DNA of 64,000 nucleotides from Phycisphaerae bacterium (GTDB taxonomy: Bacteria > Planctomycetota > Phycisphaerae > JAAYCJ01). The notes beneath the pieces are model-generated. The model worked only from the letters and a program-made list of their open reading frames with translations. It was not told the DNA's origin and did no database searches. The stretch is taken from the NCBI GenBank assembly GCA_012729815.1, contig JAAYCJ010000014.1, positions 1,043-65,042 on the forward strand. The letters are read 5' to 3'. Below, one piece after another: positions 1 through 26,501 of this stretch. How positions within the stretch are numbered: position 1 is the stretch's first letter; each line of letters begins with the position of its first letter. The translations under genes and the position numbers were made by a program.

Positions 1-651
1 CATCGTCTCGGCTGCCACGGACCCATCAAAACCCCTGATGCGTTTCCCGATGACGCTTCGAAATTGGCCTATTGGGTCAATGCGCATAACGCAGTGGCTT
101 TGCTGGCTGCGGTGCGAAAGTACCCGGCCAAGCGCCTCAAGCCGCCGTTCGGGGATTTTGCCCAGACGACCACCGCCTGGATCGACGGCCGCCATCTGAG
201 CCTTGCCCAGATTGCCCAGTTTGCCCGGTCGGCCAGACCCGACGATCCGCGGGTGGATCTGGCCCTGGCCTATCCGACCAAGGGCGGCGGTTCGCGGTTC
301 GGTTTTGTCCTCAAGCCGCGGGAGGACCTGGTGCAACAGTTGCACAGTTTATTCGTCCGTTCGCTGGACGATTCGGCCGCCATCAACATCGACCACGCCC
401 GCTGGACGCTGTGGCTGGGCCGGCCGATCTGGGACAATCGCGACCGGTATCTCGCGCAATACCGCGACCAATACGGCACAGCGGCGGGCAACATCGTCAA
501 CGCCCTGGCGGACCTGGCCAATCCCAGCCAGCGCCGCCGGCTCAACACCGCCATCGGCTACAAGATCAAACCCCAGTCCTACGACTGGTCGCTCAATGCG
601 TCTGAACCCTACAAGTGCTCTCTTTCTGAATCAACGGAGGTTGTTCGATGA
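1..651 (+). CDS. DUF547-like protein; 5' end runs off the window (listed ORF start 64 is internal)
   Basis: The frame stays open back to nt 1. The motif AYWVNAHNAVALLAAV resembles the DUF547 FWINxYNALV signature. It overlaps the next gene by 4 bp (ATGA). Confidence 0.5.
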   Translation, partial: HRLGCHGPIKTPDAFPDDASKLAYWVNAHNAVALLAAVRKYPAKRLKPPFGDFAQTTTAWIDGRHLSLAQIAQFARSARPDDPRVDLALAYPTKGGGSRFGFVLKPREDLVQQLHSLFVRSLDDSAAINIDHARWTLWLGRPIWDNRDRYLAQYRDQYGTAAGNIVNALADLANPSQRRRLNTAIGYKIKPQSYDWSLNASEPYKCSLSESTEVVR

Positions 652-14572: not shown

Positions 14573-16849
14573 ATGAAACCGTCAATAATGCTGCCGGCTG
14601 CGTTTCTGTCCGTTTTCTGCTGGGCCAATGCCGCCACCGTCAATGTCTGGCTCGAAATCGACGCTTCGGCCAACGAGTACCGCGTGCTGGCCGAGTGCGT
14701 CGACGACGTCGCTGGGACCTGCGCCGGACTGGCCCTCTACAACGTCACGCTGAGCAACGTGGCGGAGTTGTACAACGACGGTCCGATGGCCTATGACGAG
14801 GCGGGCGAGACCACCACGCCGCTGGCCGGTTTCGTTTTGTTCCGCAGCGACAGCGGGGCCGGCGTCACCACGTTGGGCGCCGCCCAGAATACGTTTGATC
14901 CCAACGGAGCCCAGATCGTGTACGACATCGGCGACCAGGCGGTCGATCTGACCGCGCTCGTTTCAGCCGATGTCTACGTGCCCGCCGACGGTCAGGTCGC
15001 CGTGCCCGTTCAACTGGGCCACGGCACGTTCACCGGCGATCCGCCGAGCATCACCAACGCGACCTTCAATGTCTTTGATCCCGCCCGCGACGGCACCACT
15101 CAGCCGCCCGATACCGTCGCGATTCTCGATCCGGACATCGTCGGCGTCGAATACACCCTGACCGTCAGCGTCCAGGGCCAAGGCACGACCACGCCCGCCG
15201 CGGGCGATCATACGTATGACGAAGGCGTCCAAGTGGCGATCTTGGCCGCCGCCGCCGACGGTTGGCACTTCGTTCGCTGGCAGGGCGACGTGTCGGCCAC
15301 CAGCGCCGCCGCCTCGGTGACCATGAACGCCGACAAGGCCGTCACCGCCGTTTTTGAAGAGGATGCCGCCCAGTATGCCCTGACAGTGCAGGTCCAGGGC
15401 CAGGGGACGACCACGCCGGCCGCCGGCCAGCACACGTATGACGATGGGACGGTCGTTCCTCTCTCAGCCGCCGCCGCCGACGGCTGGCATTTCGTCCGTT
15501 GGCAGGGCGACGTCGCCGGAACCAGTCCCTCCTCCTCCATCACGATCAGCAGCAACAAATCGGTGACCGCCGTCTTCGAGCAGGACGCCGCCCAGTACAC
15601 GCTGACCGTCAACGTCCAAGGTCAGGGCGCGACCACGCCCGCCGCCGGTCAGCACACCTATGATGAAGGGGCCGCCGTCCCGCTGACCGCCACGCCCGCC
15701 GGCGGCTGGCACTTCGTCCGGTGGGAAGGCGACGCCTCCGGCGCCCAGGAGTCCACCCAGGTTACCATGGACAGCGCGATGACCGTCACCGCCGTCTTCG
15801 AGCGAGACACCGCCCAATACGCGCTGACCGTCAACGTCCAGGGCCAGGGCACAACGACGCCCGCCGCCGGTCAGCACACCTACGATCAGGGCGCCCAGGT
15901 AAACCTCGGCGCCACGCCCGCACAAGGTTGGCACTTTGTCCGGTGGGAGGGCGACGTGTCCGGCGTCAATCCGAACGTTGGGGTCACCATGGACTCCAGC
16001 AAGTCCGTCACCGCGGTCTTTGAGCAGGACGCGGCCCAGTACACGCTAACCGTCAACGTCCAGGGCGACGGGACCACCGATCCCAATGCCGGTCAGCACA
16101 GCTACGATGCAAACGCCGCGGTCGAGGTTGCCGCTACCGCCGCCGACGGCTGGCATTTCGTCCGCTGGCAGGGCGATGCGACCGGAACCGCGCCAACCCT
16201 GACCGTCACCATGGACCGCGGCAAGAGCGTCACCGCCGTCTTTGAGCAGGACGCCGCCGAATACGTCCTGACCGTCAACGTCCAGGGCAGCGGCTCGACC
16301 AATCCGGTTCCCGGCCAGCACAGCTACGCGGACGGAACCGAGGTAATCGTCGCGGCCACACCCGTCGAGGGCTGGCACTTTGTCCGGTGGGAGGGCGATT
16401 TGACGGGCGCCACCGCCACGGCATCGCTGACGATGGACGCCAGCCAGTCGATCACCGCGGTCTTCGAGCAGGACGCGGCCCAGTACACGCTGACCGTCAA
16501 CGTCCAGGGCCAGGGCACGACGGCGCCCGCTGCCGGCCAGCATGCCTACGACAGCGGAACCGAGGTCGCCCTCTCGGCTGCCCCGGCCGAAGACTGGGAG
16601 TTCATCCGCTGGGAGGGTGACATCTCCGCGACCGACCCGAACACCACCGTGACCATGAACGCGGGCAAGTCGGTCACCGCCGTTTTCCAAGCCGAGGCGG
16701 TTGATCCCAATGATCCCAACCAGCCGTCCGACCCCAACGAAACCAACGGCGACGTTCCTCCCATCGGCGGATGCCTCATGACCGCCATGGTCGTCGGACT
16801 GGCTGTGGCCTTCGGATTCGCCATGCTCGGACTATATCGGGAGTCGTAG
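14573..16849 (+). CDS. Secreted repeat protein with 7 tandem InlB-B-type (Listeria-Bacteroides repeat, TIGR02543-like) domains and a C-terminal TM anchor
   Basis: Start re-called to MKPSIMLPAAFLSVFCWANA (signal peptide), which has a GGAGAG RBS; the listed ORF start at 14504 is upstream. It contains seven ~74-aa repeats of the form YTLTVNVQGQGTTTPAAGQHTYD...GWHFVRWEGD...SVTAVFEQDAAQ. The C-terminus (VPPIGG, hydrophobic helix, YRES) may be a degenerate PEP-CTERM-like anchor. Confidence 0.75.
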   Translation: MKPSIMLPAAFLSVFCWANAATVNVWLEIDASANEYRVLAECVDDVAGTCAGLALYNVTLSNVAELYNDGPMAYDEAGETTTPLAGFVLFRSDSGAGVTTLGAAQNTFDPNGAQIVYDIGDQAVDLTALVSADVYVPADGQVAVPVQLGHGTFTGDPPSITNATFNVFDPARDGTTQPPDTVAILDPDIVGVEYTLTVSVQGQGTTTPAAGDHTYDEGVQVAILAAAADGWHFVRWQGDVSATSAAASVTMNADKAVTAVFEEDAAQYALTVQVQGQGTTTPAAGQHTYDDGTVVPLSAAAADGWHFVRWQGDVAGTSPSSSITISSNKSVTAVFEQDAAQYTLTVNVQGQGATTPAAGQHTYDEGAAVPLTATPAGGWHFVRWEGDASGAQESTQVTMDSAMTVTAVFERDTAQYALTVNVQGQGTTTPAAGQHTYDQGAQVNLGATPAQGWHFVRWEGDVSGVNPNVGVTMDSSKSVTAVFEQDAAQYTLTVNVQGDGTTDPNAGQHSYDANAAVEVAATAADGWHFVRWQGDATGTAPTLTVTMDRGKSVTAVFEQDAAEYVLTVNVQGSGSTNPVPGQHSYADGTEVIVAATPVEGWHFVRWEGDLTGATATASLTMDASQSITAVFEQDAAQYTLTVNVQGQGTTAPAAGQHAYDSGTEVALSAAPAEDWEFIRWEGDISATDPNTTVTMNAGKSVTAVFQAEAVDPNDPNQPSDPNETNGDVPPIGGCLMTAMVVGLAVAFGFAMLGLYRES
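15152..16695 (+). repeat. Intragenic tandem DNA repeat, 7 copies of ~222 bp at high identity
   Basis: Near-identical nucleotide blocks recur in frame (for example gccgtcttcgagcaggacgccgcccagtacacgctgaccgtcaacgtccagggccagggc). These encode the InlB-B repeats; it is not a CRISPR array. Confidence 0.8.
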
Positions 16850-16874: not shown

Positions 16875-16910
16875 GACCCGGTCGCCAGTTCGCGGCCGGG
16901 TCTTTCTATG
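16875..16910 (+). terminator. Putative intrinsic terminator downstream of the repeat-protein gene
   Basis: A GC-rich hairpin GACCCGG...CCGGGTC is followed by TTTCT. Confidence 0.35.
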
Positions 16911-16971: not shown

Positions 16972-17000
16972 TTGATCTGGGCTCGGCAATCGCATATACT
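16972..17000 (+). promoter_or_regulatory. Putative sigma70-like promoter (TTGATC, 17-nt spacer, TATACT) for the 17045 gene
   Basis: The hexamers sit in the AT-richer intergenic region about 45 nt upstream of the ATG, which has a GGAGAA RBS. Confidence 0.35.
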
Positions 17001-17044: not shown

Positions 17045-18970
17045 ATGCGGCGATTCCCTTCGGCGGCGATCTGCCTGATTACTGTGTCCGCGGCGGCGTT
17101 CCTGGGGGCCTGCAACGGTCCCGTCAACAACCTGGCCAAGAATCAGGAGTATCTCCTGACGGTCAGCGTCGAGGGCCATGGCACGGTCAGCCCGGACACC
17201 CTCACCTACAACGCCGGGACTTCCGTGGTCCTCGTGGCGGAGCCCGCCGCCGGCTGGCACTTCGTCCGATGGGAAGGCTCCGGTCAGGGCACCGGCGATA
17301 CGCTGCAACTGGTCATGGACCGCGATCGCGCGGTCACCGCGGTTTTTGAGGAGGGTGTGCTTCAATACACCTTGACCGTGGAAGTCGAGGGCCAGGGCAG
17401 CGTTAACCCTTCATCCGGCGCGCATGGGTACGATCCGAATTCCATCGTTAACCTCACCGCCACCGCCGCCGACGGCTGGCGCTTCGTCGAGTGGCAGGGC
17501 TTCGCCGGCGGGACCGACCCTGCGACCACCGTTACCATGACCGGCAACAAGACGGTCAAAGCCGTCTTCGAGGAGGATACGTCGCAGACGCTGACCATCG
17601 CGGTTCAGGGCCAGGGTACGGTCGATCCGGCGGTCGGTCAGCACGAGTATGAGAGGGACACGCAGGTGAGCGTGAAGGCCGCCGCCGCCGACGGCTGGCA
17701 CTTCGTTCGATGGGAAGGGGACGCCGCCGGCAACACACCCAGCGCGACCGTCTCCATGGACGCCGACAAGACGGTCACCGCCGTCTTTGAAGAGGACAGC
17801 GACGCATACAACCTGACCATCGCCGTCAGCGGCCAGGGGACCACCGATCCCGCCGCCGGGACTCACAGCTATCCTGCCGACGGATCGGTCAGCCTGACCG
17901 CCGCCGCCGCCGCCGGCTGGCATTTCGTCCGCTGGCAGGGCGACGCCCAGGGCACCTCGCCGACGGTCGAATTGACGATGGGTTCGGCCAAGACGGTCAC
18001 CGCGATCTTCGAGGAGGACGCGGCCGAATATACCCTCACCGTCTCGGCCATCGGCCAGGGCACCGTGGATCCGGCCGTCGGAGGCTACAGCTACGCCGAC
18101 GGCCAGCAGGTCACGCTGACCGCCACGGCGGGCGAGAGCTGGCGGTTCGACCGCTGGCAGGGCGACGTGACCGGGACGGACAACCCCGTCACGGTGACCA
18201 TGTCCGCCACCCGCAGCGTGACCGCCGTCTTCGTCCGCCAGTATCGCCTGAGCGTGGCCGCGACCGGCCAGGGAACCACCAGCCCGGCCGTTGGCGATCA
18301 TTTCTACGACGTCGGCCAGACCGTGACCGTCTCAGCCACGCCCGCCAACGGCTGGCGATTCCTCGATTGGACCGGCGACCTGTCCTCGTCCAACCAGAGC
18401 GCCGATCTGGTCATGGACGACGACAAGGCCATCACCGCCTCCTTCGGCGGCGCGGGCGTCCAGGTCATGATCGAAACCTCCAAAGGCAATATTCTCGTCG
18501 AACTGGACGATGAGCTGGCGCCGGTCACCGTCGAAAACTTCCTCAGTTACGTCGATGAGGGGTTCTACGACGGGACCGACGGCAAAGAGGCCACCATCTT
18601 CCACCGCGTGATTCCCGATTTCATGGTTCAGTGCGGCGGCTTCACCGAAGAGCTGGAAGAGAAGGAGACGCACGACCCGATCGTCCTCGAGTCGGACAAC
18701 GGCTTGAGGAACGTGCGGGGCACGATCGCGATGGCCCGCACCACCGAACCCGACAGCGCCACCTCGCAGTTTTTCATCAACGTGGTGGACAACGATTTCC
18801 TCAACTACGCGAGCGAAGCGAAGCCCGGCTACGCCGTTTTCGGCCGCGTGCTGGAGGGCATGGACGTCGCCGACGAGATCGTCGCCGTCGAGACCGCCTC
18901 CGTCGGTCCGCACGACGACGTGCCGGTGGAGGCCATCTTCATTACCTCCGTGTATCGCGTTGAGGAATGA
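17045..18970 (+). CDS. Lipoprotein with six InlB-B-type repeats fused to a C-terminal cyclophilin-type peptidyl-prolyl isomerase domain
   Basis: The signal peptide carries a lipobox (FLGAC). Six GWHFVRWEGD-type repeats follow. The C-terminal 170 aa (VMIETSKGNILVELDDELAPVTVENF...[15 protein letters not shown]...ARTTEPDSATSQFFINV) is a clear cyclophilin. Confidence 0.8.
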   Translation: MRRFPSAAICLITVSAAAFLGACNGPVNNLAKNQEYLLTVSVEGHGTVSPDTLTYNAGTSVVLVAEPAAGWHFVRWEGSGQGTGDTLQLVMDRDRAVTAVFEEGVLQYTLTVEVEGQGSVNPSSGAHGYDPNSIVNLTATAADGWRFVEWQGFAGGTDPATTVTMTGNKTVKAVFEEDTSQTLTIAVQGQGTVDPAVGQHEYERDTQVSVKAAAADGWHFVRWEGDAAGNTPSATVSMDADKTVTAVFEEDSDAYNLTIAVSGQGTTDPAAGTHSYPADGSVSLTAAAAAGWHFVRWQGDAQGTSPTVELTMGSAKTVTAIFEEDAAEYTLTVSAIGQGTVDPAVGGYSYADGQQVTLTATAGESWRFDRWQGDVTGTDNPVTVTMSATRSVTAVFVRQYRLSVAATGQGTTSPAVGDHFYDVGQTVTVSATPANGWRFLDWTGDLSSSNQSADLVMDDDKAITASFGGAGVQVMIETSKGNILVELDDELAPVTVENFLSYVDEGFYDGTDGKEATIFHRVIPDFMVQCGGFTEELEEKETHDPIVLESDNGLRNVRGTIAMARTTEPDSATSQFFINVVDNDFLNYASEAKPGYAVFGRVLEGMDVADEIVAVETASVGPHDDVPVEAIFITSVYRVEE

Positions 18971-20937: not shown

Positions 20938-21501
20938 ATGGGCGAACTTCGACCACCGCCGCCGGCCAAGCTGTTTGTCGCGATGCTCGTCGCGCCGGAC
21001 GTTGCCGGCCGCGTCGACCGGATCGACGGGCGGCTGATCGAGTGTTTCGGCCCCATCGATCTGGTCAGTCCCGATTTCTCCTTCGAGTTCACCGACTACT
21101 ACAAGGCCGAGATGGGCGAGAATCTGGTCCGTCGTATCGTCAGCTTCGAATCCCTCTTCGATCCGGCCGGGCTGCCGGCGGTCAAGCACCGCACCAACGA
21201 CCTGGAAGCCGAGTTGACGGCTGAGCTGCGTAATCCTGAGTCCGGCCGGGCGGTCAACCTTGACGCGGGCTATCTGACCCTCGGCCAACTCGTTCTGGCC
21301 ACCACCAAGAGCCACGCCCACCGTCTCTACCTGCGCGACGGGATATGGGCTGAGGTCACCCTCCGCTATCACAAGGGCGACTACGAAAAATGGCCCTGGA
21401 CCTATCCGGACTATGCCTCCGGACGGTATAATTCGTTCTGGCGACCGATGCGCGACAAACTCAAGCGGCAGATGGAGGAAACGCAAAGCTCCCATGAATG
21501 A
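20938..21501 (+). CDS. Small conserved hypothetical protein (DUF4416-like)
   Basis: Start re-called to the ATG of MGELRPP, which has a GGAGGA RBS; the listed ORF 20494 is an upstream GC extension. The 187-aa protein contains NLDAGYLTLGQLVLATTK..HAHRLYLRDGIWAEVTLRY. Confidence 0.5.
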   Translation: MGELRPPPPAKLFVAMLVAPDVAGRVDRIDGRLIECFGPIDLVSPDFSFEFTDYYKAEMGENLVRRIVSFESLFDPAGLPAVKHRTNDLEAELTAELRNPESGRAVNLDAGYLTLGQLVLATTKSHAHRLYLRDGIWAEVTLRYHKGDYEKWPWTYPDYASGRYNSFWRPMRDKLKRQMEETQSSHE

Positions 21502-22600
21502 CCCTTCCACCGCCACGCTGGCCCGCATGCTCCTGCTGATCGCCGGGCCCTCAGCGGTCGTCAGTTTCGGCCTGTGCTACCTGATGCGGGTGTTGGCCCC
21601 GGCGCTCGGTTATATGGACCGTCCCGGCGGCCGCAAGAGCCACCCGCGCGCCATGCCGATGGGCGGCGGCGTCGCCGTCGTGCTGACGGTGATCGCCTTG
21701 ATCGCGGCGGGGATCGCCGCGGTGCTCTCCGATGTCTACGCCTCGTTTCCCGCGTTCGACTGGCTCGCCGTGCACCGCGAAGGCCTGGCCTTGCGGCTCC
21801 ATCAATTGGCCGGCGTCCTGTTCTGCGGGCTGATCCTCCTCGTTCTGGGCGTCTTCGACGACGTCAAGGATCTCGGCCCCAGGTTCAAACTCCTCGTCCA
21901 GTTCCTTCTGGCCGGTCTGGTGGTCTTCGGGTTCGACGTTCAGGCGACGGTCTTCCTGCCCGCGCCGATCCTCGGTTCGCTGCTGACCGTGCTGTGGATC
22001 GTGGTCATCACCAACGCCTTCAACTTCCTGGACAACGCCGACGGCCTGGCCTCCGGCGTCGCCCTTATCTGCACCGCCGTGCTGATCGCCGTCGCCGTCG
22101 GCTCGGGCCAGATCTTCGTCTCAGCCTATCTGGCCTGCTTCGCCGGGGCGATCATCGGATTCCTGCTTCACAATTTCCCGCCCGCCCGCATCTACCTCGG
22201 CGACGCGGGCAGCCAGCCCATTGGCTTCCTGCTCGCCGTCGGCACCATCCTGACCACCTATTATCAGGAGCAGTCGCCCGATCAGCTCCGCACCGCCGTC
22301 TTTATTCCGCTTATCATCATGGCCATTCCGCTCTACGATTTCTTCTCGGTGATCGTCATCCGGCTGCGGGCGGGCAAGAGCCCGTTCGTCGGCGACCACC
22401 GGCATTTCTCGCACCGCCTGCTGCAGCGCGGCCTGCGGGTGCGCGACGTGGTGCTGACCATCTACCTGGCCTGCGGCGCCACCGCCGTCGGAGCGATCGT
22501 CCTTCAGCAGGTCGCCTGGCCGTACGCGATGCTCATCTTCCTCCAGACCCTCTGCATCGTCGCCATCATCGGCATTCTGGAGTATCAGCCGAAAAAGTGA
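21494..22600 (+). CDS. Polyprenyl-phosphate sugar-1-phosphate transferase (glycosyltransferase family 4, WecA/MraY/TagO-like)
   Basis: Family motifs are present: DRPGGRKSH, VFDDVKDL, NAFNFLDNADGLASG. It has about 10 TM segments. The start (MNDPST) overlaps the upstream gene by 8 bp. Confidence 0.8.
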   Translation: MNDPSTATLARMLLLIAGPSAVVSFGLCYLMRVLAPALGYMDRPGGRKSHPRAMPMGGGVAVVLTVIALIAAGIAAVLSDVYASFPAFDWLAVHREGLALRLHQLAGVLFCGLILLVLGVFDDVKDLGPRFKLLVQFLLAGLVVFGFDVQATVFLPAPILGSLLTVLWIVVITNAFNFLDNADGLASGVALICTAVLIAVAVGSGQIFVSAYLACFAGAIIGFLLHNFPPARIYLGDAGSQPIGFLLAVGTILTTYYQEQSPDQLRTAVFIPLIIMAIPLYDFFSVIVIRLRAGKSPFVGDHRHFSHRLLQRGLRVRDVVLTIYLACGATAVGAIVLQQVAWPYAMLIFLQTLCIVAIIGILEYQPKK

Positions 22601-22601
22601 C

Positions 22602-24914
22602 ATGAACGCCACGGCCCGACCGCACAACCCGGTCCGCGAGAAGCTCTCAGCCGCCCTGTTCGTGATGCTGCTGATCGTGATCGGCGTCGCCTCCATCAGC
22701 CAACTCCGCTGGACCAGCCCTTCCGGCCAGATGGACAGCAGCTTCGGCGGCGGTTACGATCTGACCGCTGCGGCGGTCATGGGTCTGGTGGTCCTGCTGG
22801 TTGGCGCGGCTGCGTGGATCGTCTGCCCGTGTCGGCCGCGACTGAACCTGCTGCTGGCCGCTGAGATCCTCTTCGTCGCCGGCCTGATCGTCTCGACCTG
22901 GTTCGCCGCCGACCATCGCGTTGCCCTCAACTACGCCGCCGGCTTCGTCGTGTGCCTCGTGCTCATGCACGCGACGTTCCGCCTGACCGACCGGCCGTGG
23001 AAGGTGCGGCTCGCCCTGATCGCCCTGGTCGCTCTGGGAACCATCTTCGCCCTCAAGACCTGGAGCCGCGAACTCTACGAGACCGACCAGACCTGGACGC
23101 AGTACCTCGAAACCCGCGAGCAGCTCTGGGCTCGTCAGGGCAAGGCGCTCGACGACCCAGCGGTCAAGCTCTACGAGGCCCGCCTGCTGAGCCGCGACAA
23201 CGGCGGCTTCTTCTTTCACGGCAATCTCGGCGGGGCCTATCTGGCCTTCCTTTTGATGGTCAGCCTCGCCGCCGTCGCCAACCGCCTTCGCGACCGGGCC
23301 GGGCCGTACCAGAAGACCTGGCTGGCGGTCCAGGTGCTGCTGTCGCTGCTGATCGCCTCCGCCCTGGTCATCACCTACAGCAAGGGCGCGATGATGGCTT
23401 TGGGCATTGCGCTGATGGCCTCGATGATCCTGCTGCTCTTTGGGCGGCGGCTGCGGCGGCGGGTCAACCTGGCCGCACTCGTCGCGCTGCTGATCGTGCT
23501 GGCCGGTTTCGCCGCGGTCATCGGCCACGGCCTGGCCCGAAACACGCTGCCGACGCTGTCGATGGCGTTTCGCTGGCAGTACTGGACCGCCGGCTGGCAT
23601 ATGTTCCTCGACCATCCGCTGACCGGCGTCGGGCCCGGCAACTTCGGCTATCACTACATGCGCTACAAACTGCCCGAAGCCGAAGAGGAGGTTCTCTCGC
23701 CGCACAATTTCATCGTGCAGGGCTTCACCGAATTCGGCATCCTCGGCGGCCTCGGCATCGTCCTGCTGCCGCTGGCGATCTTCTACAGCCTTGCCCGCTC
23801 CGCCGCCGCCGATTCGCCGCCGCTGTCCGTTCTCGAATCGCAGCCGCCCCGCGCCGGCCCGCTGATGCTCATCATCCTCGCCGGCATCTACATCTTCGCC
23901 GTCGCGTTCAACCAGACCGGCCTGGACAACCCGCTGATCCTGTTGGCGCTTCACTGGCCCTACATCCTCGGTTTCGCCCTGAGTTTCACCCTCTCGTCGC
24001 TCCGCTTCGACGAACTTGGCGACATCGACGACCGCTTCGGCGGCCGCGGCAAGCTCGTCGATCCGCCGGTGCTGGTCTTCCTCGCTGGCGCGCTGGTGCT
24101 CTTTGTCGCGGGCAACCTGGTCAACTTCTCGTTCTTCGAGCCTTCGAACCAGTTCCTGTTCTTCTTCATAGCGGGCCTGGCGCTCGCCGCGGCGCCCCCG
24201 CAGACATCGCTCACGACGCCCAAGTGCGACCTGGCCAAATCCGCCGGTCTGGCCGTCCTGGCCCTGCTGTTCCTGATCTACGTTGTCGTGCCCGCCGCCC
24301 GCATCGAGACCGCGGTGGCCGACGCCGAAGACTCACCGCCCGCCCGCGATCCCGCCTTCGATCAGCCGTATCAACGCCTGGTCGAGCTTACCGAGCAATA
24401 TCCCTTCGACCCGCACCCGCCCGCCAAGGCCGCTGAGCGGCTGCTGCGACTCGCCCAGCCCGGCGTCGCTCCGGAGCTTCTGATCGCGCAGGCGGTCAAA
24501 CACTTCCAGCAGGCCCGCAGCCGCGCGCCGCAAGTCTACCGTTTCTGGCGGGCTGAGGCCCAGGCATGGCTCCTGCTCGCCGAGACCCGCCCGACCCGCG
24601 CCGATCACGCCTACACCCAGGCCGAAACGCTCCTCGACTGCGCCCTGGAACTGGCCCCGCGCTCTCGTTCGCTCTGGGTCACCGCGGGCCTGACCTCCTA
24701 CCAGCACGCCGTCGCCCTCGAGCCCGCTCAGCCCGACCGCGCCGCCCGCCTCGCCCTCCAGGCCAAAGAGCGTCTTACCACCGCGCTCGAACTCAACGAC
24801 GCCCTTCCCGAAAACTCCCTGCGCCGCTTCCCGCCGTCCCAAATGCGGCAGATCCACAGCGCCCTGGCCTCGCTGGATACCTTCCTCTCCCAGACCACCC
24901 AGCCCGCCCCATAA
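22602..24914 (+). CDS. Wzy_C (O-antigen ligase / O-oligosaccharyltransferase) family membrane protein with a C-terminal TPR-like soluble domain
   Basis: Wzy_C motifs YSKGAMMALG and HPLTGVGPGNFGYHY..PHNFIVQGFTEFGILGG are present. The C-terminal ~230 aa are helical and TPR-like. It starts 1 nt after the upstream stop. Confidence 0.75.
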   Translation: MNATARPHNPVREKLSAALFVMLLIVIGVASISQLRWTSPSGQMDSSFGGGYDLTAAAVMGLVVLLVGAAAWIVCPCRPRLNLLLAAEILFVAGLIVSTWFAADHRVALNYAAGFVVCLVLMHATFRLTDRPWKVRLALIALVALGTIFALKTWSRELYETDQTWTQYLETREQLWARQGKALDDPAVKLYEARLLSRDNGGFFFHGNLGGAYLAFLLMVSLAAVANRLRDRAGPYQKTWLAVQVLLSLLIASALVITYSKGAMMALGIALMASMILLLFGRRLRRRVNLAALVALLIVLAGFAAVIGHGLARNTLPTLSMAFRWQYWTAGWHMFLDHPLTGVGPGNFGYHYMRYKLPEAEEEVLSPHNFIVQGFTEFGILGGLGIVLLPLAIFYSLARSAAADSPPLSVLESQPPRAGPLMLIILAGIYIFAVAFNQTGLDNPLILLALHWPYILGFALSFTLSSLRFDELGDIDDRFGGRGKLVDPPVLVFLAGALVLFVAGNLVNFSFFEPSNQFLFFFIAGLALAAAPPQTSLTTPKCDLAKSAGLAVLALLFLIYVVVPAARIETAVADAEDSPPARDPAFDQPYQRLVELTEQYPFDPHPPAKAAERLLRLAQPGVAPELLIAQAVKHFQQARSRAPQVYRFWRAEAQAWLLLAETRPTRADHAYTQAETLLDCALELAPRSRSLWVTAGLTSYQHAVALEPAQPDRAARLALQAKERLTTALELNDALPENSLRRFPPSQMRQIHSALASLDTFLSQTTQPAP

Positions 24915-24970: not shown

Positions 24971-25654
24971 TTACTTCTTTTCCGCCTTCTCGATCACCAC
25001 CGGCTCGGCCGGCACATTCTCGTGCGGTCCGACCCTCGTCGTCCGCACCGCGACGATCTTGTCCACCACGTCCATCCCCTCGACCACCTTGCCGAACACC
25101 GCGTAGCCCGGATTCCGCGCCCCGCGATAGTTCAGGAAATCGTTGTTCGCCACGTTGACAAAGAACTGCGCCGTCGCGCTGTCCGGATCGGCGGTCCGCG
25201 CCATCGCGATCGTGCCGCGCAGGTTCTTCAAGCCGTTCGCGGCTTCGTTCTTGATCGGCTTGTGCACCCGCTTCTGCTCCATCCGCGGCGTGAACCCGCC
25301 GCCCTGGATCATGAAGTCCGGGATCACCCGGTGAAAGATCGTCCCGTCGAAATGCCCCTCTTCGACGTACCGCAGGAAGTTCTTCGCTGTGATCGGCGCC
25401 TTCTCTTCATTCAGCTCCAGCACGATCCGGCCCATGCTCGTCTCGAGCACCACCTGCGGCGCCTTCGGCTGGGTGGTCGGCTGAGTCGCCGGCTGCGTCG
25501 AAGCCTGCTCGCTCGGCCTGGTCGTCGGTTTCTGATCCGTCATGGTCGTCTCCTTTGTGGTTCCTTCATCCGCCCGGCTTTCCCAACTGCCGTACCCGAT
25601 CAGCCACGCCAGTCCCGCCGTCAACGCCCCAGCCGCGATCAGTGAACGCTTCAT
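24971..25654 (-). CDS. Secreted cyclophilin-type peptidyl-prolyl cis-trans isomerase
   Basis: A signal peptide and a Thr/Pro/Gln-rich linker precede the cyclophilin core ([15 protein letters not shown]...[17 protein letters not shown]). It is a paralog of the C-terminal domain of 17045..18970. Confidence 0.85.
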
Positions 25655-25787: not shown

Positions 25788-26501
25788 CTATAATCCCAAA
25801 AACTGGATCGCCAGACCCGAACCGCAGATCACCAGCCCCGCCAAAGCGTGAGCGTAGCGTTCCAGCTTGCCCAGCGGCACGAACGACAGGCCCGCCGACG
25901 AGAGCAGCACCACGCCCATCATCGTCGCGATCGTCACCGCCCCGAACACGCCGGCCACCGCCGCCACGCCCCAAAGGCTGTTCTTGATCGCTGGGTACAT
26001 CAGCACCGGGATCAGCGGCTCGCACGGCCCGAACACGAAGATCGTGAACAGAATCCACGGCGTCATGCTCACCGCCGCCTCTTGGCTGTGGACGTGAACG
26101 TGCTCCTGGTGGTGCGTGTGCTCGTGCACGTGCGATTCCTGCTCGCCGTGCTCGTGCCAGTGGCGGTGCGGCTGATTGCGGTACGCCCGCCGCAGACCCC
26201 ACACGAAATACGCGAACCCGAACGCGATCAGCCCCCACGCCGCGATCTGCCCGCGATGCGACTCGATTTCCACCAGACTGTCCACCGCCGCGCCGAGCGC
26301 GATTCCCGCGAACCCCAGCACCACCGAACTGCCGATATGCCCCACTCCGCATGCGAACGTCACTGCAGTCGTCTTCGGCAGCGACCAGCGCCCCGCCTTC
26401 GACATCATGATAAACGGCAGATAATGATCCGGTCCCAGCAGCGTATGGAAAAACCCGATCGACGCCGCCGTCGCCAGCAACAAGCCCATCTCACTGCTCA
26501 T
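25788..26501 (-). CDS. NicO/RcnA-like nickel/cobalt transporter
   Basis: Six TM helices. The TM motif FHTLLGPDH resembles RcnA HAxGPGHGK. There is a His-rich loop HRHWHEHGEQESHVHEHTHHQEHVHVH. Confidence 0.55.
   Translation of the reverse strand: MSSEMGLLLATAASIGFFHTLLGPDHYLPFIMMSKAGRWSLPKTTAVTFACGVGHIGSSVVLGFAGIALGAAVDSLVEIESHRGQIAAWGLIAFGFAYFVWGLRRAYRNQPHRHWHEHGEQESHVHEHTHHQEHVHVHSQEAAVSMTPWILFTIFVFGPCEPLIPVLMYPAIKNSLWGVAAVAGVFGAVTIATMMGVVLLSSAGLSFVPLGKLERYAHALAGLVICGSGLAIQFLGL

Follow-up and report, generated by a model that had tools for sequence, protein, structure and literature searches.

Exported PPIases aid protein folding after translocation, but their positioning in the cell envelope has been little studied beyond a few model bacteria. 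E. coli PpiA (rotamase A; structures 1clh and 1j2a) is a soluble, single-domain periplasmic cyclophilin with a cleaved signal peptide. SlrA of S. pneumoniae is described as a cyclophilin PPIase with a lipoprotein signal which functions as a foldase outside the cytoplasmic membrane (PMC11853100, citing Hermans et al. 2006). S. pyogenes PpiA, another cyclophilin PPIase with a lipoprotein signal, is an extracytoplasmic foldase for secreted proteins (PMC11853100). The Lactococcus lactis PpiA is a membrane-tethered surface cyclophilin, which showed both PPIase and chaperone activity in vitro; its in vivo phenotype was only very mild (PMC3307742).

In the window, which is the whole 64-kb stretch of DNA analyzed here, one gene of an uncultured Phycisphaerae bacterium encodes a lipoprotein-type fusion of six B-repeats and a complete cyclophilin (Table 1), as the initial annotation had proposed. 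The domain order of the mature fusion can be read directly from the sequence. We consider it probable (roughly 0.6), on sequence grounds, that the gene product is an exported, lipid-anchored PPIase of the PpiA kind with the B-repeats as a folded spacer. After Sec export, Cys23 would presumably be modified with diacylglycerol and the leader cut by signal peptidase II, as expected from the lipobox. The mature protein would then consist of the lipid, a short tether, six all-beta modules, and the catalytic cyclophilin at the far tip. Judging from the catalytic residues and the characterized relatives, the cyclophilin would speed up X-Pro cis/trans isomerization on proteins entering the cell envelope and would probably also act as a general chaperone on envelope proteins. 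The B-repeats most likely set the distance between the enzyme and the membrane, as comparison with related proteins suggests.

The fusion is a lineage-specific variation on the tethered and exported foldases already known (SlrA, L. lactis PpiA, and E. coli PpiA), and it reveals no new mechanism or enzyme class. It shares about 59% identity with E. coli PpiA over the domain, and both are extracytoplasmic, but a lipobox, six B-repeats, and a six-residue insert distinguish the fusion. SlrA and S. pyogenes PpiA are Gram-positive proteins without a repeat stalk, and their own insertions differ, comprising 9 residues in the beta4-beta5 loop and 24 in the beta6-beta7 loop (PMC11853100). Their relation to the fusion is best regarded as functional analogy and less as close homology. 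Unlike the fusion, L. lactis PpiA has an N-terminal transmembrane anchor and no repeats; this design of a hydrophobic anchor and a PPIase resembles instead the second cyclophilin of the window. The AquaCyps of marine Alphaproteobacteria carry insertions and extensions in a single domain and have no B-repeats (PMC4898713).

Table 1. Positions of the fusion gene, its parts, and neighboring features in the window
Feature	Position	Strand	Basis
Whole gene: lipobox-bearing B-repeat/cyclophilin fusion, 641 aa	17045..18970, stop codon included	+	ORF finder, Pfam
Signal peptide (aa 1-22) and lipobox Cys23 (L-G-A-C)	17045..17113	+	PS51257-type rule
B-repeat 1 (aa 36-101)	17150..17347	+	Repeat HMM, PF18998
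B-repeat 2 (aa 108-175)	17366..17569	+	Repeat HMM, PF18998
B-repeat 3 (aa 182-248)	17588..17788	+	Repeat HMM, PF18998
B-repeat 4 (aa 255-322)	17807..18010	+	Repeat HMM, PF18998
B-repeat 5 (aa 329-396)	18029..18232	+	Repeat HMM, PF18998
B-repeat 6 (aa 400-467)	18242..18445	+	Repeat HMM, PF18998
Cyclophilin-type PPIase domain (aa 474-636)	18464..18952	+	PF00160 Pro_isomerase, E 7.9e-41; PpiA structure matches; catalytic residues
Six-residue insert DGKEAT (aa 512-517), flanked by 'FYDGT' and 'IFHRV'	18578..18595	+	Cyclophilin-subgroup marker
Sigma-70-like promoter match	16972..17000	+	TTGATC-17-TATACT, 9/12 positions; 45 nt upstream of start codon
Terminator-like hairpin 3' of the upstream repeat-protein gene	16875..16902	+	11-bp stem, 9 G-C pairs; weak consensus match
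Adjacent exported seven-B-repeat protein	14573..16849	+	PF18998 x7, E 2.9e-96; C-terminal 'GGC'-hydrophobic-'YRES' tail
Second exported cyclophilin, 227 aa	24971..25654	-	Pro_isomerase, E 1.1e-47

The stalk of the fusion was analyzed by profile searches and structure prediction. A Pfam search detected six stretches of PF18998 (Flg_new_2, "divergent InlB B-repeat") with an E value of 7.8e-78 and 256.9 bits, and the module boundaries were taken from a repeat HMM built on the window. A 12-residue tether after Cys23 is followed by modules of about 70 aa, which are joined by linkers of 3 to 7 residues, mostly acidic, and about five residues (GGAGV) separate repeat 6 from the cyclophilin. The AlphaFold2 model of repeat 4 alone showed seven strands and no helix, with a pLDDT of 97. 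In the full-length model (mean pLDDT, 82.7), residues 1 to 31 were disordered and were followed by six beta modules and then the cyclophilin; the pTM of 0.40 is expected for such a beads-on-a-string layout. A Foldseek search of the B-repeat against the PDB gave no significant match, the best nonsignificant one being an accessory domain of a sialidase, and a profile search of PDB sequences with the B-repeat found nothing. The fusion repeats scored 26.6 bits against TIGR02543 (cutoff, 20.95), with no single stretch significant alone. The modules had initially been described as beta-sandwich repeats of the InlB-B type. The predicted strands agree with the first part of this description, but the InlB label comes from the Pfam family name alone, because no solved structure, InlB included, matched significantly. 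The PF18998 family, which the six modules match strongly, comprises thousands of exported multi-repeat proteins, most of which, unlike the fusion, carry no enzyme or other enzymes.

Next, the distribution of the fusion was examined. The same combination of B-repeats and cyclophilin was seen again in 16 or more database proteins, which have 1 to about 7 repeats, and relatives from other samples were 41 to 52% identical to the window protein. The initial annotation had called a surface-tethered cyclophilin uncommon; only the repeat stalk is the less common part, and it recurs in these proteins. A search of 1.84 billion representatives yielded about nine that clearly span repeat and cyclophilin, in a list swamped by multi-repeat proteins, so that nine is no reliable total. 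Several fusion-like matches with multiple stretches were rejected as tandem multi-cyclophilin proteins with other Ig-like domains. In the literature library that was searched, no paper named both the InlB B-repeat and cyclophilin, and PF18998 appeared only in passing. In a neighbor-joining tree of cyclophilin domains, the fusions did not form one clade and were scattered on a short backbone without support values; a single origin of the fusion is therefore unproven.

Every fusion examined carried a 'DGxDGxGAT' insert in the cyclophilin, comprising 15 of 15 relatives retrieved and four fused genome loci, the latter having been selected by the insert motif itself. In alignments, the six-residue insert was absent from both the second cyclophilin of the window and E. 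coli PpiA. Species-representative genomes contained 76 insert-bearing cyclophilins, at least 47 of which had a lipobox Cys. In 43 of these 47, the Cys was followed by a spacer, usually low in complexity and rich in D/T/S/G (median, 31 aa over all 47), whereas the remaining four, all from Phycisphaerae, had one to three B-repeats at this position, one of them with an extra acidic linker. Outside Phycisphaerae, the insert-bearing cyclophilins were mostly labeled Myxococcota and had an acidic/Ser/Thr spacer in place of the repeats. Those of them that have a lipobox are uncharacterized database sequences of the same cyclophilin subgroup as the fusion (55 to 63% identity) and share its insert, lipobox Cys, and spacer between anchor and enzyme, but their spacer is a low-complexity, Asp/Thr/Ser/Gly-rich stretch of about 8 to 100 aa and not a series of folded B-repeats. 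Phycisphaerae and Sedimentisphaerales also have lipobox cyclophilins that lack the insert, likewise known as database sequences only. Because the same subgroup has low-complexity acidic/Ser/Thr spacers elsewhere at the position of the repeats, and because the repeat number in Phycisphaerae ranges from 1 to 7, we infer that the repeats most likely serve as a folded spacer. Such a role would also be compatible with ligand binding by the repeats. The family offers a natural series for asking if membrane distance matters to an envelope foldase, in which the catalytic subgroup and the anchor type are shared and the spacers differ (disordered, 8 to about 100 aa, versus 1 to 7 folded repeats). Phycisphaerae (Planctomycetota) have an unusual cell envelope.

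Alternatively, the B-repeats could be a targeting or binding module that docks the PPIase on a glycan or cell-wall target or on other proteins with B-repeats, with the product of the upstream gene 14573..16849 as a candidate client. This upstream protein and the fusion are the only B-repeat proteins of the window, and their genes are adjacent. Repeat 4 is as close to the repeats of the neighbor (47 to 62% identity) as to its sister repeats (39 to 59%), and every repeat has an invariant Pro in a 'G.G...P' motif. B-repeat domains are common in adhesin-like and glycan-active proteins, and PF18998 stands alongside glycan-active enzymes in other proteins (PMC10076258); the nonsignificant match to a sialidase accessory domain points in the same direction. 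However, in five loci of relatives, the gene upstream of the fusion encoded DUF4434, UxaE, or an unannotated product, and no repeat protein was found nearby. In addition, the two genes are set apart in the window by a terminator-like hairpin and a promoter-like site, other lineages place low-complexity linkers incapable of specific binding at the position of the repeats, and fusions may have anything from 1 to 7 repeats. We thus regard a binding module as unlikely and prefer the folded spacer. An operon with the upstream repeat protein was likewise judged unlikely, given the hairpin and promoter-like site between the genes and the nonconserved adjacency. The neighborhood shared by the relatives comprised AnmK, a 4HBT thioesterase, an SDR, UxaE, and DUF4434; the strands of these genes are mixed, their products are mostly cytoplasmic, and the window has kept the SDR alone.

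It seems improbable that the stalk is a specificity device, either as a ruler whose 1 to 7 repeats are tuned to the width of the compartment that the foldase has to bridge in Phycisphaerae or as a recognizer of nascent B-repeat proteins. If the latter were true, folding the abundant B-repeat proteins of the surface would be the dedicated task of the fusion, and the seven-repeat neighbor, with its invariant Pro per repeat, would be one of its clients. Gene calls in other assemblies give the neighbor a length of 753 or 758 aa, and its C-terminal tail matched no NCBIfam sorting-signal model even at an E value of ≤10. PEP-CTERM proteins had been suggested as substrates of the fusion, but in a pattern search of the window ORFs that are 100 aa or longer, none ended in a PEP-CTERM-like tail (a PEP motif with a transmembrane helix and a basic tail), and this suggestion was dropped.

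The leader of the fusion was examined with a strict lipobox rule of the PROSITE PS51257 type: Lys/Arg at one of positions 1 to 7, a hydrophobic stretch without charges, [LIVMFWSTAG]2-[LIVMFYSTAGCQ]-[AGS]-Cys, and the Cys at position 15 to 35. The N terminus MRRFPSAAICLITVSAAAFLGAC matched this rule at Cys23 (FLGAC). A lipobox suggests a protein tethered to a membrane outside the cytoplasm and specifies neither the membrane nor its face; the cell-surface location given in the initial annotation therefore goes further than the lipobox does. All 11 fusion relatives with an N-terminal leader had [G/A/S]-Cys at the leader end, just ahead of repeat 1, and the Cys was also conserved in each of the four fused loci from species-representative genomes, all of them Phycisphaerae MAGs. 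Only 3 of the 11 passed the strict rule; the other eight kept the Cys but had an atypical residue at -3/-2 or a late Lys/Arg. Among the nearest standalone cyclophilins, 60 of 120 matched the strict rule. A tethered cyclophilin is thus not uncommon in this lineage, contrary to what had been stated, and SlrA, S. pyogenes PpiA (PMC11853100), and L. lactis PpiA (PMC3307742) are documented precedents of tethered cyclophilins with PPIase and foldase activity outside the cytoplasm.

The low pass rate among leader-bearing relatives would fit a fusion that escapes lipidation, its leader being either removed by signal peptidase I, which would leave the protein soluble in the periplasm or secreted, or retained uncleaved as a membrane anchor. 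The second cyclophilin of the window (24971..25654), about 6 kb away from the fusion gene, would fit it as well. This protein, whose presence had been noted initially, has a Cys-free hydrophobic leader, a Thr/Pro/Gln-rich spacer of about 40 aa, and a PPIase domain without the insert. Because its leader has no Cys, a lipid anchor is not a requirement for cyclophilin export in this genome. The two proteins are 62% identical and 78% similar over 161 aa, so the 80%-similar core reported for them was a fair description if similarity was meant. However, the window fusion itself passes the strict rule, [G/A/S]-Cys is kept in every leader-bearing fusion across 41 to 52% identity, and half of the nearest standalone relatives have a lipobox. 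A nonlipidated fusion accordingly appears doubtful at best, and a lipid anchor is favored.

The cyclophilin domain scored 140.4 bits against PF00160 (gathering cutoff, 21.7) and covered profile positions 2 to 157 of 159. Its best match among solved structures was E. coli PpiA (1clh/1j2a; E value, 1e-53). The domain contains R521, F526, M527, Q529, Q575, and F577, which we take to be the equivalents of R55, F60, M61, Q63, Q111, and F113 in the catalytic and substrate site of human CypA. In alignments of fusion relatives and reference cyclophilins, R521, F526, Q529, and Q575 were invariant and M527 and F577 nearly so. The Arg, Phe, and Gln named initially as conserved catalytic residues are thus present, but the Trp/His of the eukaryote-type, cyclosporin-sensitive cyclophilins is not; F585 and Y596 occupy the positions of human CypA W121 and H126, and the E. 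coli PpiA sequence in the alignment has the same two substitutions. PpiB of E. coli also shares the catalytic residues of the fusion, including this Phe/Tyr pair. The E. coli enzymes are active with Phe/Tyr, and F585 and Y596 are therefore no argument against catalysis. Against the PpiA equivalog model of NCBIfam (NF008151; cutoff, 308), the fusion scored 212.9 bits and the second cyclophilin 248.9 bits. Since both are below the cutoff, they are PpiA-like proteins and not PpiA orthologues.

A domain layout of anchor, repeat stalk, and tip is also found in bacterial adhesins, and the cyclophilin could in principle serve mainly as a module for proline-peptide binding or adhesion at the end of a surface fibril; its catalysis would then be incidental. 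Position 530, which adjoins the catalytic Q529, is Cys in the fusion and Gly in 14 other hand-aligned cyclophilin domains (QCGG versus QGGG). Furthermore, PpiA-like cyclophilin domains occur in larger exported architectures, as in the fusion, in P0273, P0282, P0286, P0323, and P0328, where Big_5, Big_12, or Big_9 domains, RTX repeats, or tandem cyclophilins take the place of the B-repeats; three of them, P0273, P0282, and P0286, are large proteins that combine several cyclophilin domains with Ig-like, RTX, or FGE-sulfatase domains. However, the complete catalytic set is kept across the family, the nearest characterized relatives are foldases (PMC11853100), and nothing points to a host; related MAGs bear names that suggest metagenomes of the anaerobic-digester type. 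An adhesive tip is highly improbable, and the PpiA-like PPIase remains the preferred reading.

Finally, we examined the gene itself. A single unbroken ORF of 641 aa starts with ATG and has the same coordinates as in the initial annotation, with a GGAG Shine-Dalgarno-like motif about 10 nt 5' of the start codon. The promoter-like match weakly suggests that the fusion gene is its own transcription unit. The identical 641-aa protein was called on at least 24 contigs of separate JGI and ENA assemblies, and no stop codon or frameshift was found at the boundary between repeats and cyclophilin. The DNA copies of the repeats were only 69 to 76% alike, and collapse during assembly is therefore unlikely. 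One assembly with the ORF split into 116 aa and 477 aa and the short NCBI annotation might speak for an artifact of assembly or gene calling, in which a repeat protein and an independent cyclophilin gene had been joined. This explanation was rejected because the ORF is identical across independent samples and assemblers, its repeat DNA has diverged, the same architecture is found in the relatives from other samples, and the split lies within repeat 2 with the junction intact. The public record presents an annotation problem: NCBI record NLX03663.1 starts from an internal Met and cuts the fusion gene down to its last 185 aa.

The ORF finder reproduced the coordinates of the fusion gene in the initial annotation exactly, and a Pfam scan of the product recovered the claimed domain order: PF18998 (Flg_new_2, "divergent InlB B-repeat," E 7.8e-78) matched in six stretches, and a single PF00160 cyclophilin domain lay C-terminal to them at residues 474 to 636 (E 7.9e-41). 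The N terminus MRRFPSAAICLITVSAAAFLGAC contains a lipobox by a PROSITE PS51257-type rule, with Cys23 as its cysteine. An AlphaFold2 model, with a 17-sequence family alignment as input, showed disorder at residues 1 to 31, then six all-beta modules and a cyclophilin fold (mean pLDDT, 82.7; pTM, 0.40), in agreement with the architecture claimed; a pTM of this size would be expected when short linkers join the domains in a string. A lone repeat modeled separately gave seven strands and no helices at a pLDDT of 97. The inter-repeat linkers are 3 to 7 residues long and mostly acidic (e.g., FEEDAAEY), and the junction between repeat 6 and the cyclophilin is about 5 residues (GGAGV). From the leader cysteine and this layout of repeats and linkers, the mature protein would thus consist of a lipid-modified Cys23, a 12-residue tether, six beta modules, and the enzyme at the tip.

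Features of the fusion locus (nucleotide positions in the window; aa, residues of the fusion protein)
Feature	Position	Strand	Description
Neighbor gene	~14573..16849	+	Exported protein, seven B-repeats; immediately 5' of fusion
Terminator-like hairpin	16875-16902		Between neighbor and fusion genes
Promoter-like site	16972-17000		Between neighbor and fusion genes
Fusion gene	17045..18970	+	Single unbroken ATG ORF, 641 aa (ORF finder)
Six repeat modules	aa 36-101, 108-175, 182-248, 255-322, 329-396, 400-467		Defined by an HMM from the window's own repeats
Cys530 codon	18632..18634		In fusion gene
Glycos_transf_4 (WecA/MraY-like) gene, then Wzy_C gene	21494..24914	+	Between the two cyclophilin genes
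Window paralogue	24971..25654	-	Second exported cyclophilin (Pfam), 227 aa
His-rich membrane protein gene	25788..26501	-	Directly upstream of window paralogue, same strand

A GGAG motif precedes the fusion ATG by about 10 nt. At least 24 contigs, drawn from separate assemblies at JGI and ENA, carry a gene call for the identical 641-aa product, and the repeat copies are just 69 to 76% alike at the DNA level, which rules out an assembly artifact as the source of the ORF. In one assembly, the ORF is broken within repeat 2 into products of 116 and 477 aa, and the NCBI record NLX03663.1 ("Phycisphaerae bacterium") contains the last 185 aa alone, starting at an internal Met; the record places the source in an uncultured MAG lineage of Phycisphaerae (Planctomycetota). 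This short record and the two-ORF assembly therefore indicate that public annotation conceals the fusion architecture, and the finding is valuable as an annotation correction.

The closest solved structures to the fusion cyclophilin were those of E. coli PpiA (1clh and 1j2a; E 1e-53) and PpiB. The domain was aligned with E. coli PpiA, human CypA, the window paralogue, and six fusion homologues. R521, F526, M527, Q529, Q575, and F577 are the equivalents of CypA R55, F60, M61, Q63, Q111, and F113, and these six positions are invariant or nearly so in the alignment. The positions of CypA W121 and H126 are F585 and Y596, the same as in the aligned E. coli PpiA. The catalytic residues of the fusion are conserved in this alignment, so the claim is not refuted by their loss, the outcome named at the outset as counting against it, and the domain is complete, as originally described. 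Against the NCBIfam PpiA equivalog, it scored 213 bits with a cutoff of 308 and is therefore PpiA-like rather than a PpiA orthologue. A six-residue insert, DGKEAT (aa 512 to 517), separates FYDGT from IFHRV and is missing in PpiA and in the window paralogue. Residue 530, beside the catalytic Q529, is Cys (QCGG) in the fusion and Gly (QGGG) in 14 other hand-aligned cyclophilin domains; the protein has two further cysteines, C10 within its leader and C23 of the lipobox.

When the full-length fusion was searched against 5.8 billion proteins, the best 120 matches included, besides the fusion itself, 15 further proteins combining PF00160 with PF18998 (41 to 52% identity to the window protein), all with a DGxDGxGAT-type insert. 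Eleven of the 15 have an N-terminal hydrophobic leader, ending in every case in [G/A/S]-Cys right before repeat 1, and just three of these, plus the window protein, passed the strict lipobox rule; the leader cysteine is conserved among the fusions that have a leader. In a search with the cyclophilin domain only, the nearest relatives were standalone proteins of 160 to 230 aa; among the nearest 120, the strict lipobox rule was met by 60 and the insert was present in 8. A lipid anchor is therefore nothing unusual for cyclophilins in this part of the tree, contrary to the earlier view of a tethered cyclophilin as an uncommon architecture. Judging by these sequences, the lineage-specific element is the B-repeat stalk, not the lipid anchor.

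An exhaustive representative search, swamped by multi-repeat proteins, returned about nine representatives, each standing for a 50%-identity cluster, that cover both repeat and cyclophilin. Public databases already contain the architecture, under the JGI labels "cyclophilin family peptidyl-prolyl cis-trans isomerase" and "TIGR02543 repeat protein," and the literature library searched contained no paper tying B-repeats to cyclophilins. A neighbor-joining tree of the cyclophilin domains did not resolve a single origin for the fusion. Two metagenomic proteins (P0065 and P0072) carry the cyclophilin in midprotein, without a lipobox, in the order Kre9/KNH-like Ig domain, B-repeats, cyclophilin, further B-repeats, and CFI-box-CTERM domain (NF041770, E 8e-31). 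Five large exported proteins (P0273, P0282, P0286, P0323, and P0328) have two to five tandem PpiA-like cyclophilin domains, with five in the 2844-aa P0273, and add Big_5, Big_12, or Big_9 Ig-like domains, RTX repeats, or an FGE-sulfatase domain. Cyclophilins on beta-rich scaffolds are thus a wider, uncharacterized phenomenon.

A degenerate DNA pattern for the insert, scanned over one genome per GTDB species, detected 77 loci, with the motif inside an ORF in 76. Just 4 of these 76 ORFs have B-repeats fused to the cyclophilin; all come from Phycisphaerae MAGs, their repeat numbers are 1, 1, 2, and 3, and each has the Cys. The remaining loci are mainly from MAGs labeled Myxococcota. A lipobox-like Cys lies upstream of the cyclophilin in at least 47 of the 76; by eye, many of the other ORFs belong to this type and escaped the regular expression. 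In the 47, the median Cys-to-enzyme gap is 31 aa. This set includes three of the four Phycisphaerae fusions, with repeat-filled gaps of 82, 118, and 224 aa, and gaps in the other members are 8 to about 100 aa and usually low-complexity Asp/Thr/Ser/Gly-rich. As read from these ORFs, the fusion recurs with variable repeat number, and disordered spacers replace the repeats in sister lineages. Six insert-bearing cyclophilins from Desulfobacterales/Desulfococcaceae MAGs (L034, L044, L049, L070, L080, and L084) combine a plain signal peptide with a conserved C-terminal region about 450 aa long, in which a Pfam scan of one member (L034) found no family.

We propose that the fusion would undergo export, acylation at Cys23, and cleavage by signal peptidase II, that its cyclophilin would catalyze prolyl isomerization in envelope or secreted proteins and act on them as a general chaperone, and that the six repeats would serve as a folded spacer keeping the enzyme off its membrane. 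Periplasmic PpiA has the same isomerase and chaperone role. Among tethered cyclophilins, this role on envelope or secreted proteins was shown for S. pyogenes PpiA and, as cited in the same paper, for SlrA (PMC11853100), and an isomerase/chaperone role was shown for L. lactis PpiA (PMC3307742). Of the "cell-surface" isomerase on a repeat stalk first described, the lipobox, repeats, and cyclophilin were recovered; the surface is one possible location, since a lipobox indicates a membrane tether outside the cytoplasm and specifies neither membrane nor face. Beta-sandwich domains of about 70 residues are typically about 3.5 to 4 nm long, and at this length per module, a six-module stalk would measure roughly 20 nm.

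As the main alternative, the repeats would direct the enzyme to a ligand or to clients that carry B-repeats. The neighbor is the only other B-repeat ORF in the window, and its repeats are 47 to 62% identical to fusion repeat 4. However, no repeat protein adjoins the fusion in five relatives' loci (L007, L008, L087, L088, and the P0020 locus). Because this adjacency is not conserved and disordered linkers fill the same job elsewhere, we consider targeting unlikely. The main value of the fusion family is that it offers a natural series of spacer lengths with which to ask whether the position of an envelope foldase matters.

In the neighbor, an N-terminal domain of about 190 aa precedes the repeats, and the C terminus is a "GGC"-hydrophobic-"YRES" tail; its last 50 aa comprise a Pro/Asn/Asp-rich linker and then PPIGGCLMTAMVVGLAVAFGFAMLGLYRES (Gly-Gly-Cys, hydrophobic helix, short polar end). 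This tail resembles a sorting or anchor signal of the C-terminal kind but had no match among the NCBIfam CTERM/sorting-signal models, even at E ≤ 10. No PEP-CTERM-like tails were found in the window, and the suggestion of PEP-CTERM substrates was not borne out.

In the five loci, which belong to distant relatives, combinations of DUF4434, UxaE, SDR, 4HBT thioesterase, and AnmK (anhydro-MurNAc kinase) recur on mixed strands, at most a few genes away from the fusion; the window retains just the SDR, downstream. We read this shared set as conserved synteny between orthologous regions rather than as a functional operon, and no functional connection was apparent. In three of the five loci, a leaderless, apparently cytoplasmic cyclophilin of 174 to 179 aa lies directly 3' of the fusion (L007, 9741-10268; L008, 9694-10218; P0020 locus), and both retrieved sequences contain the DGxDGxG insert. 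For P0134/P0018, the fusion domain and the leaderless cyclophilin are sisters in the neighbor-joining tree, which suggests local duplication. No leaderless copy of this kind was found in the window.

The glycosyltransferase and Wzy_C genes suggest a local cell envelope biogenesis cluster; the Wzy_C product is an O-antigen-ligase-like membrane protein of 770 aa with a long C-terminal extension. The window paralogue, previously noted as "80% similar," shares 62% identity and 78% similarity with the fusion catalytic domain over 161 residues. Its hydrophobic leader lacks Cys and its spacer, about 40 aa long, is rich in Thr, Pro, and Gln, so that it repeats the "anchor, spacer, enzyme" logic of the fusion with different parts. 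The adjacent gene, possibly cotranscribed with it, encodes a multipass membrane protein of 237 aa with a strikingly His-rich loop (HRHWHEHGEQESHVHEHTHHQEHVHVH), which scored 24.2 bits against DsbD_2, below the cutoff of 24.9, and may be a metal transporter.
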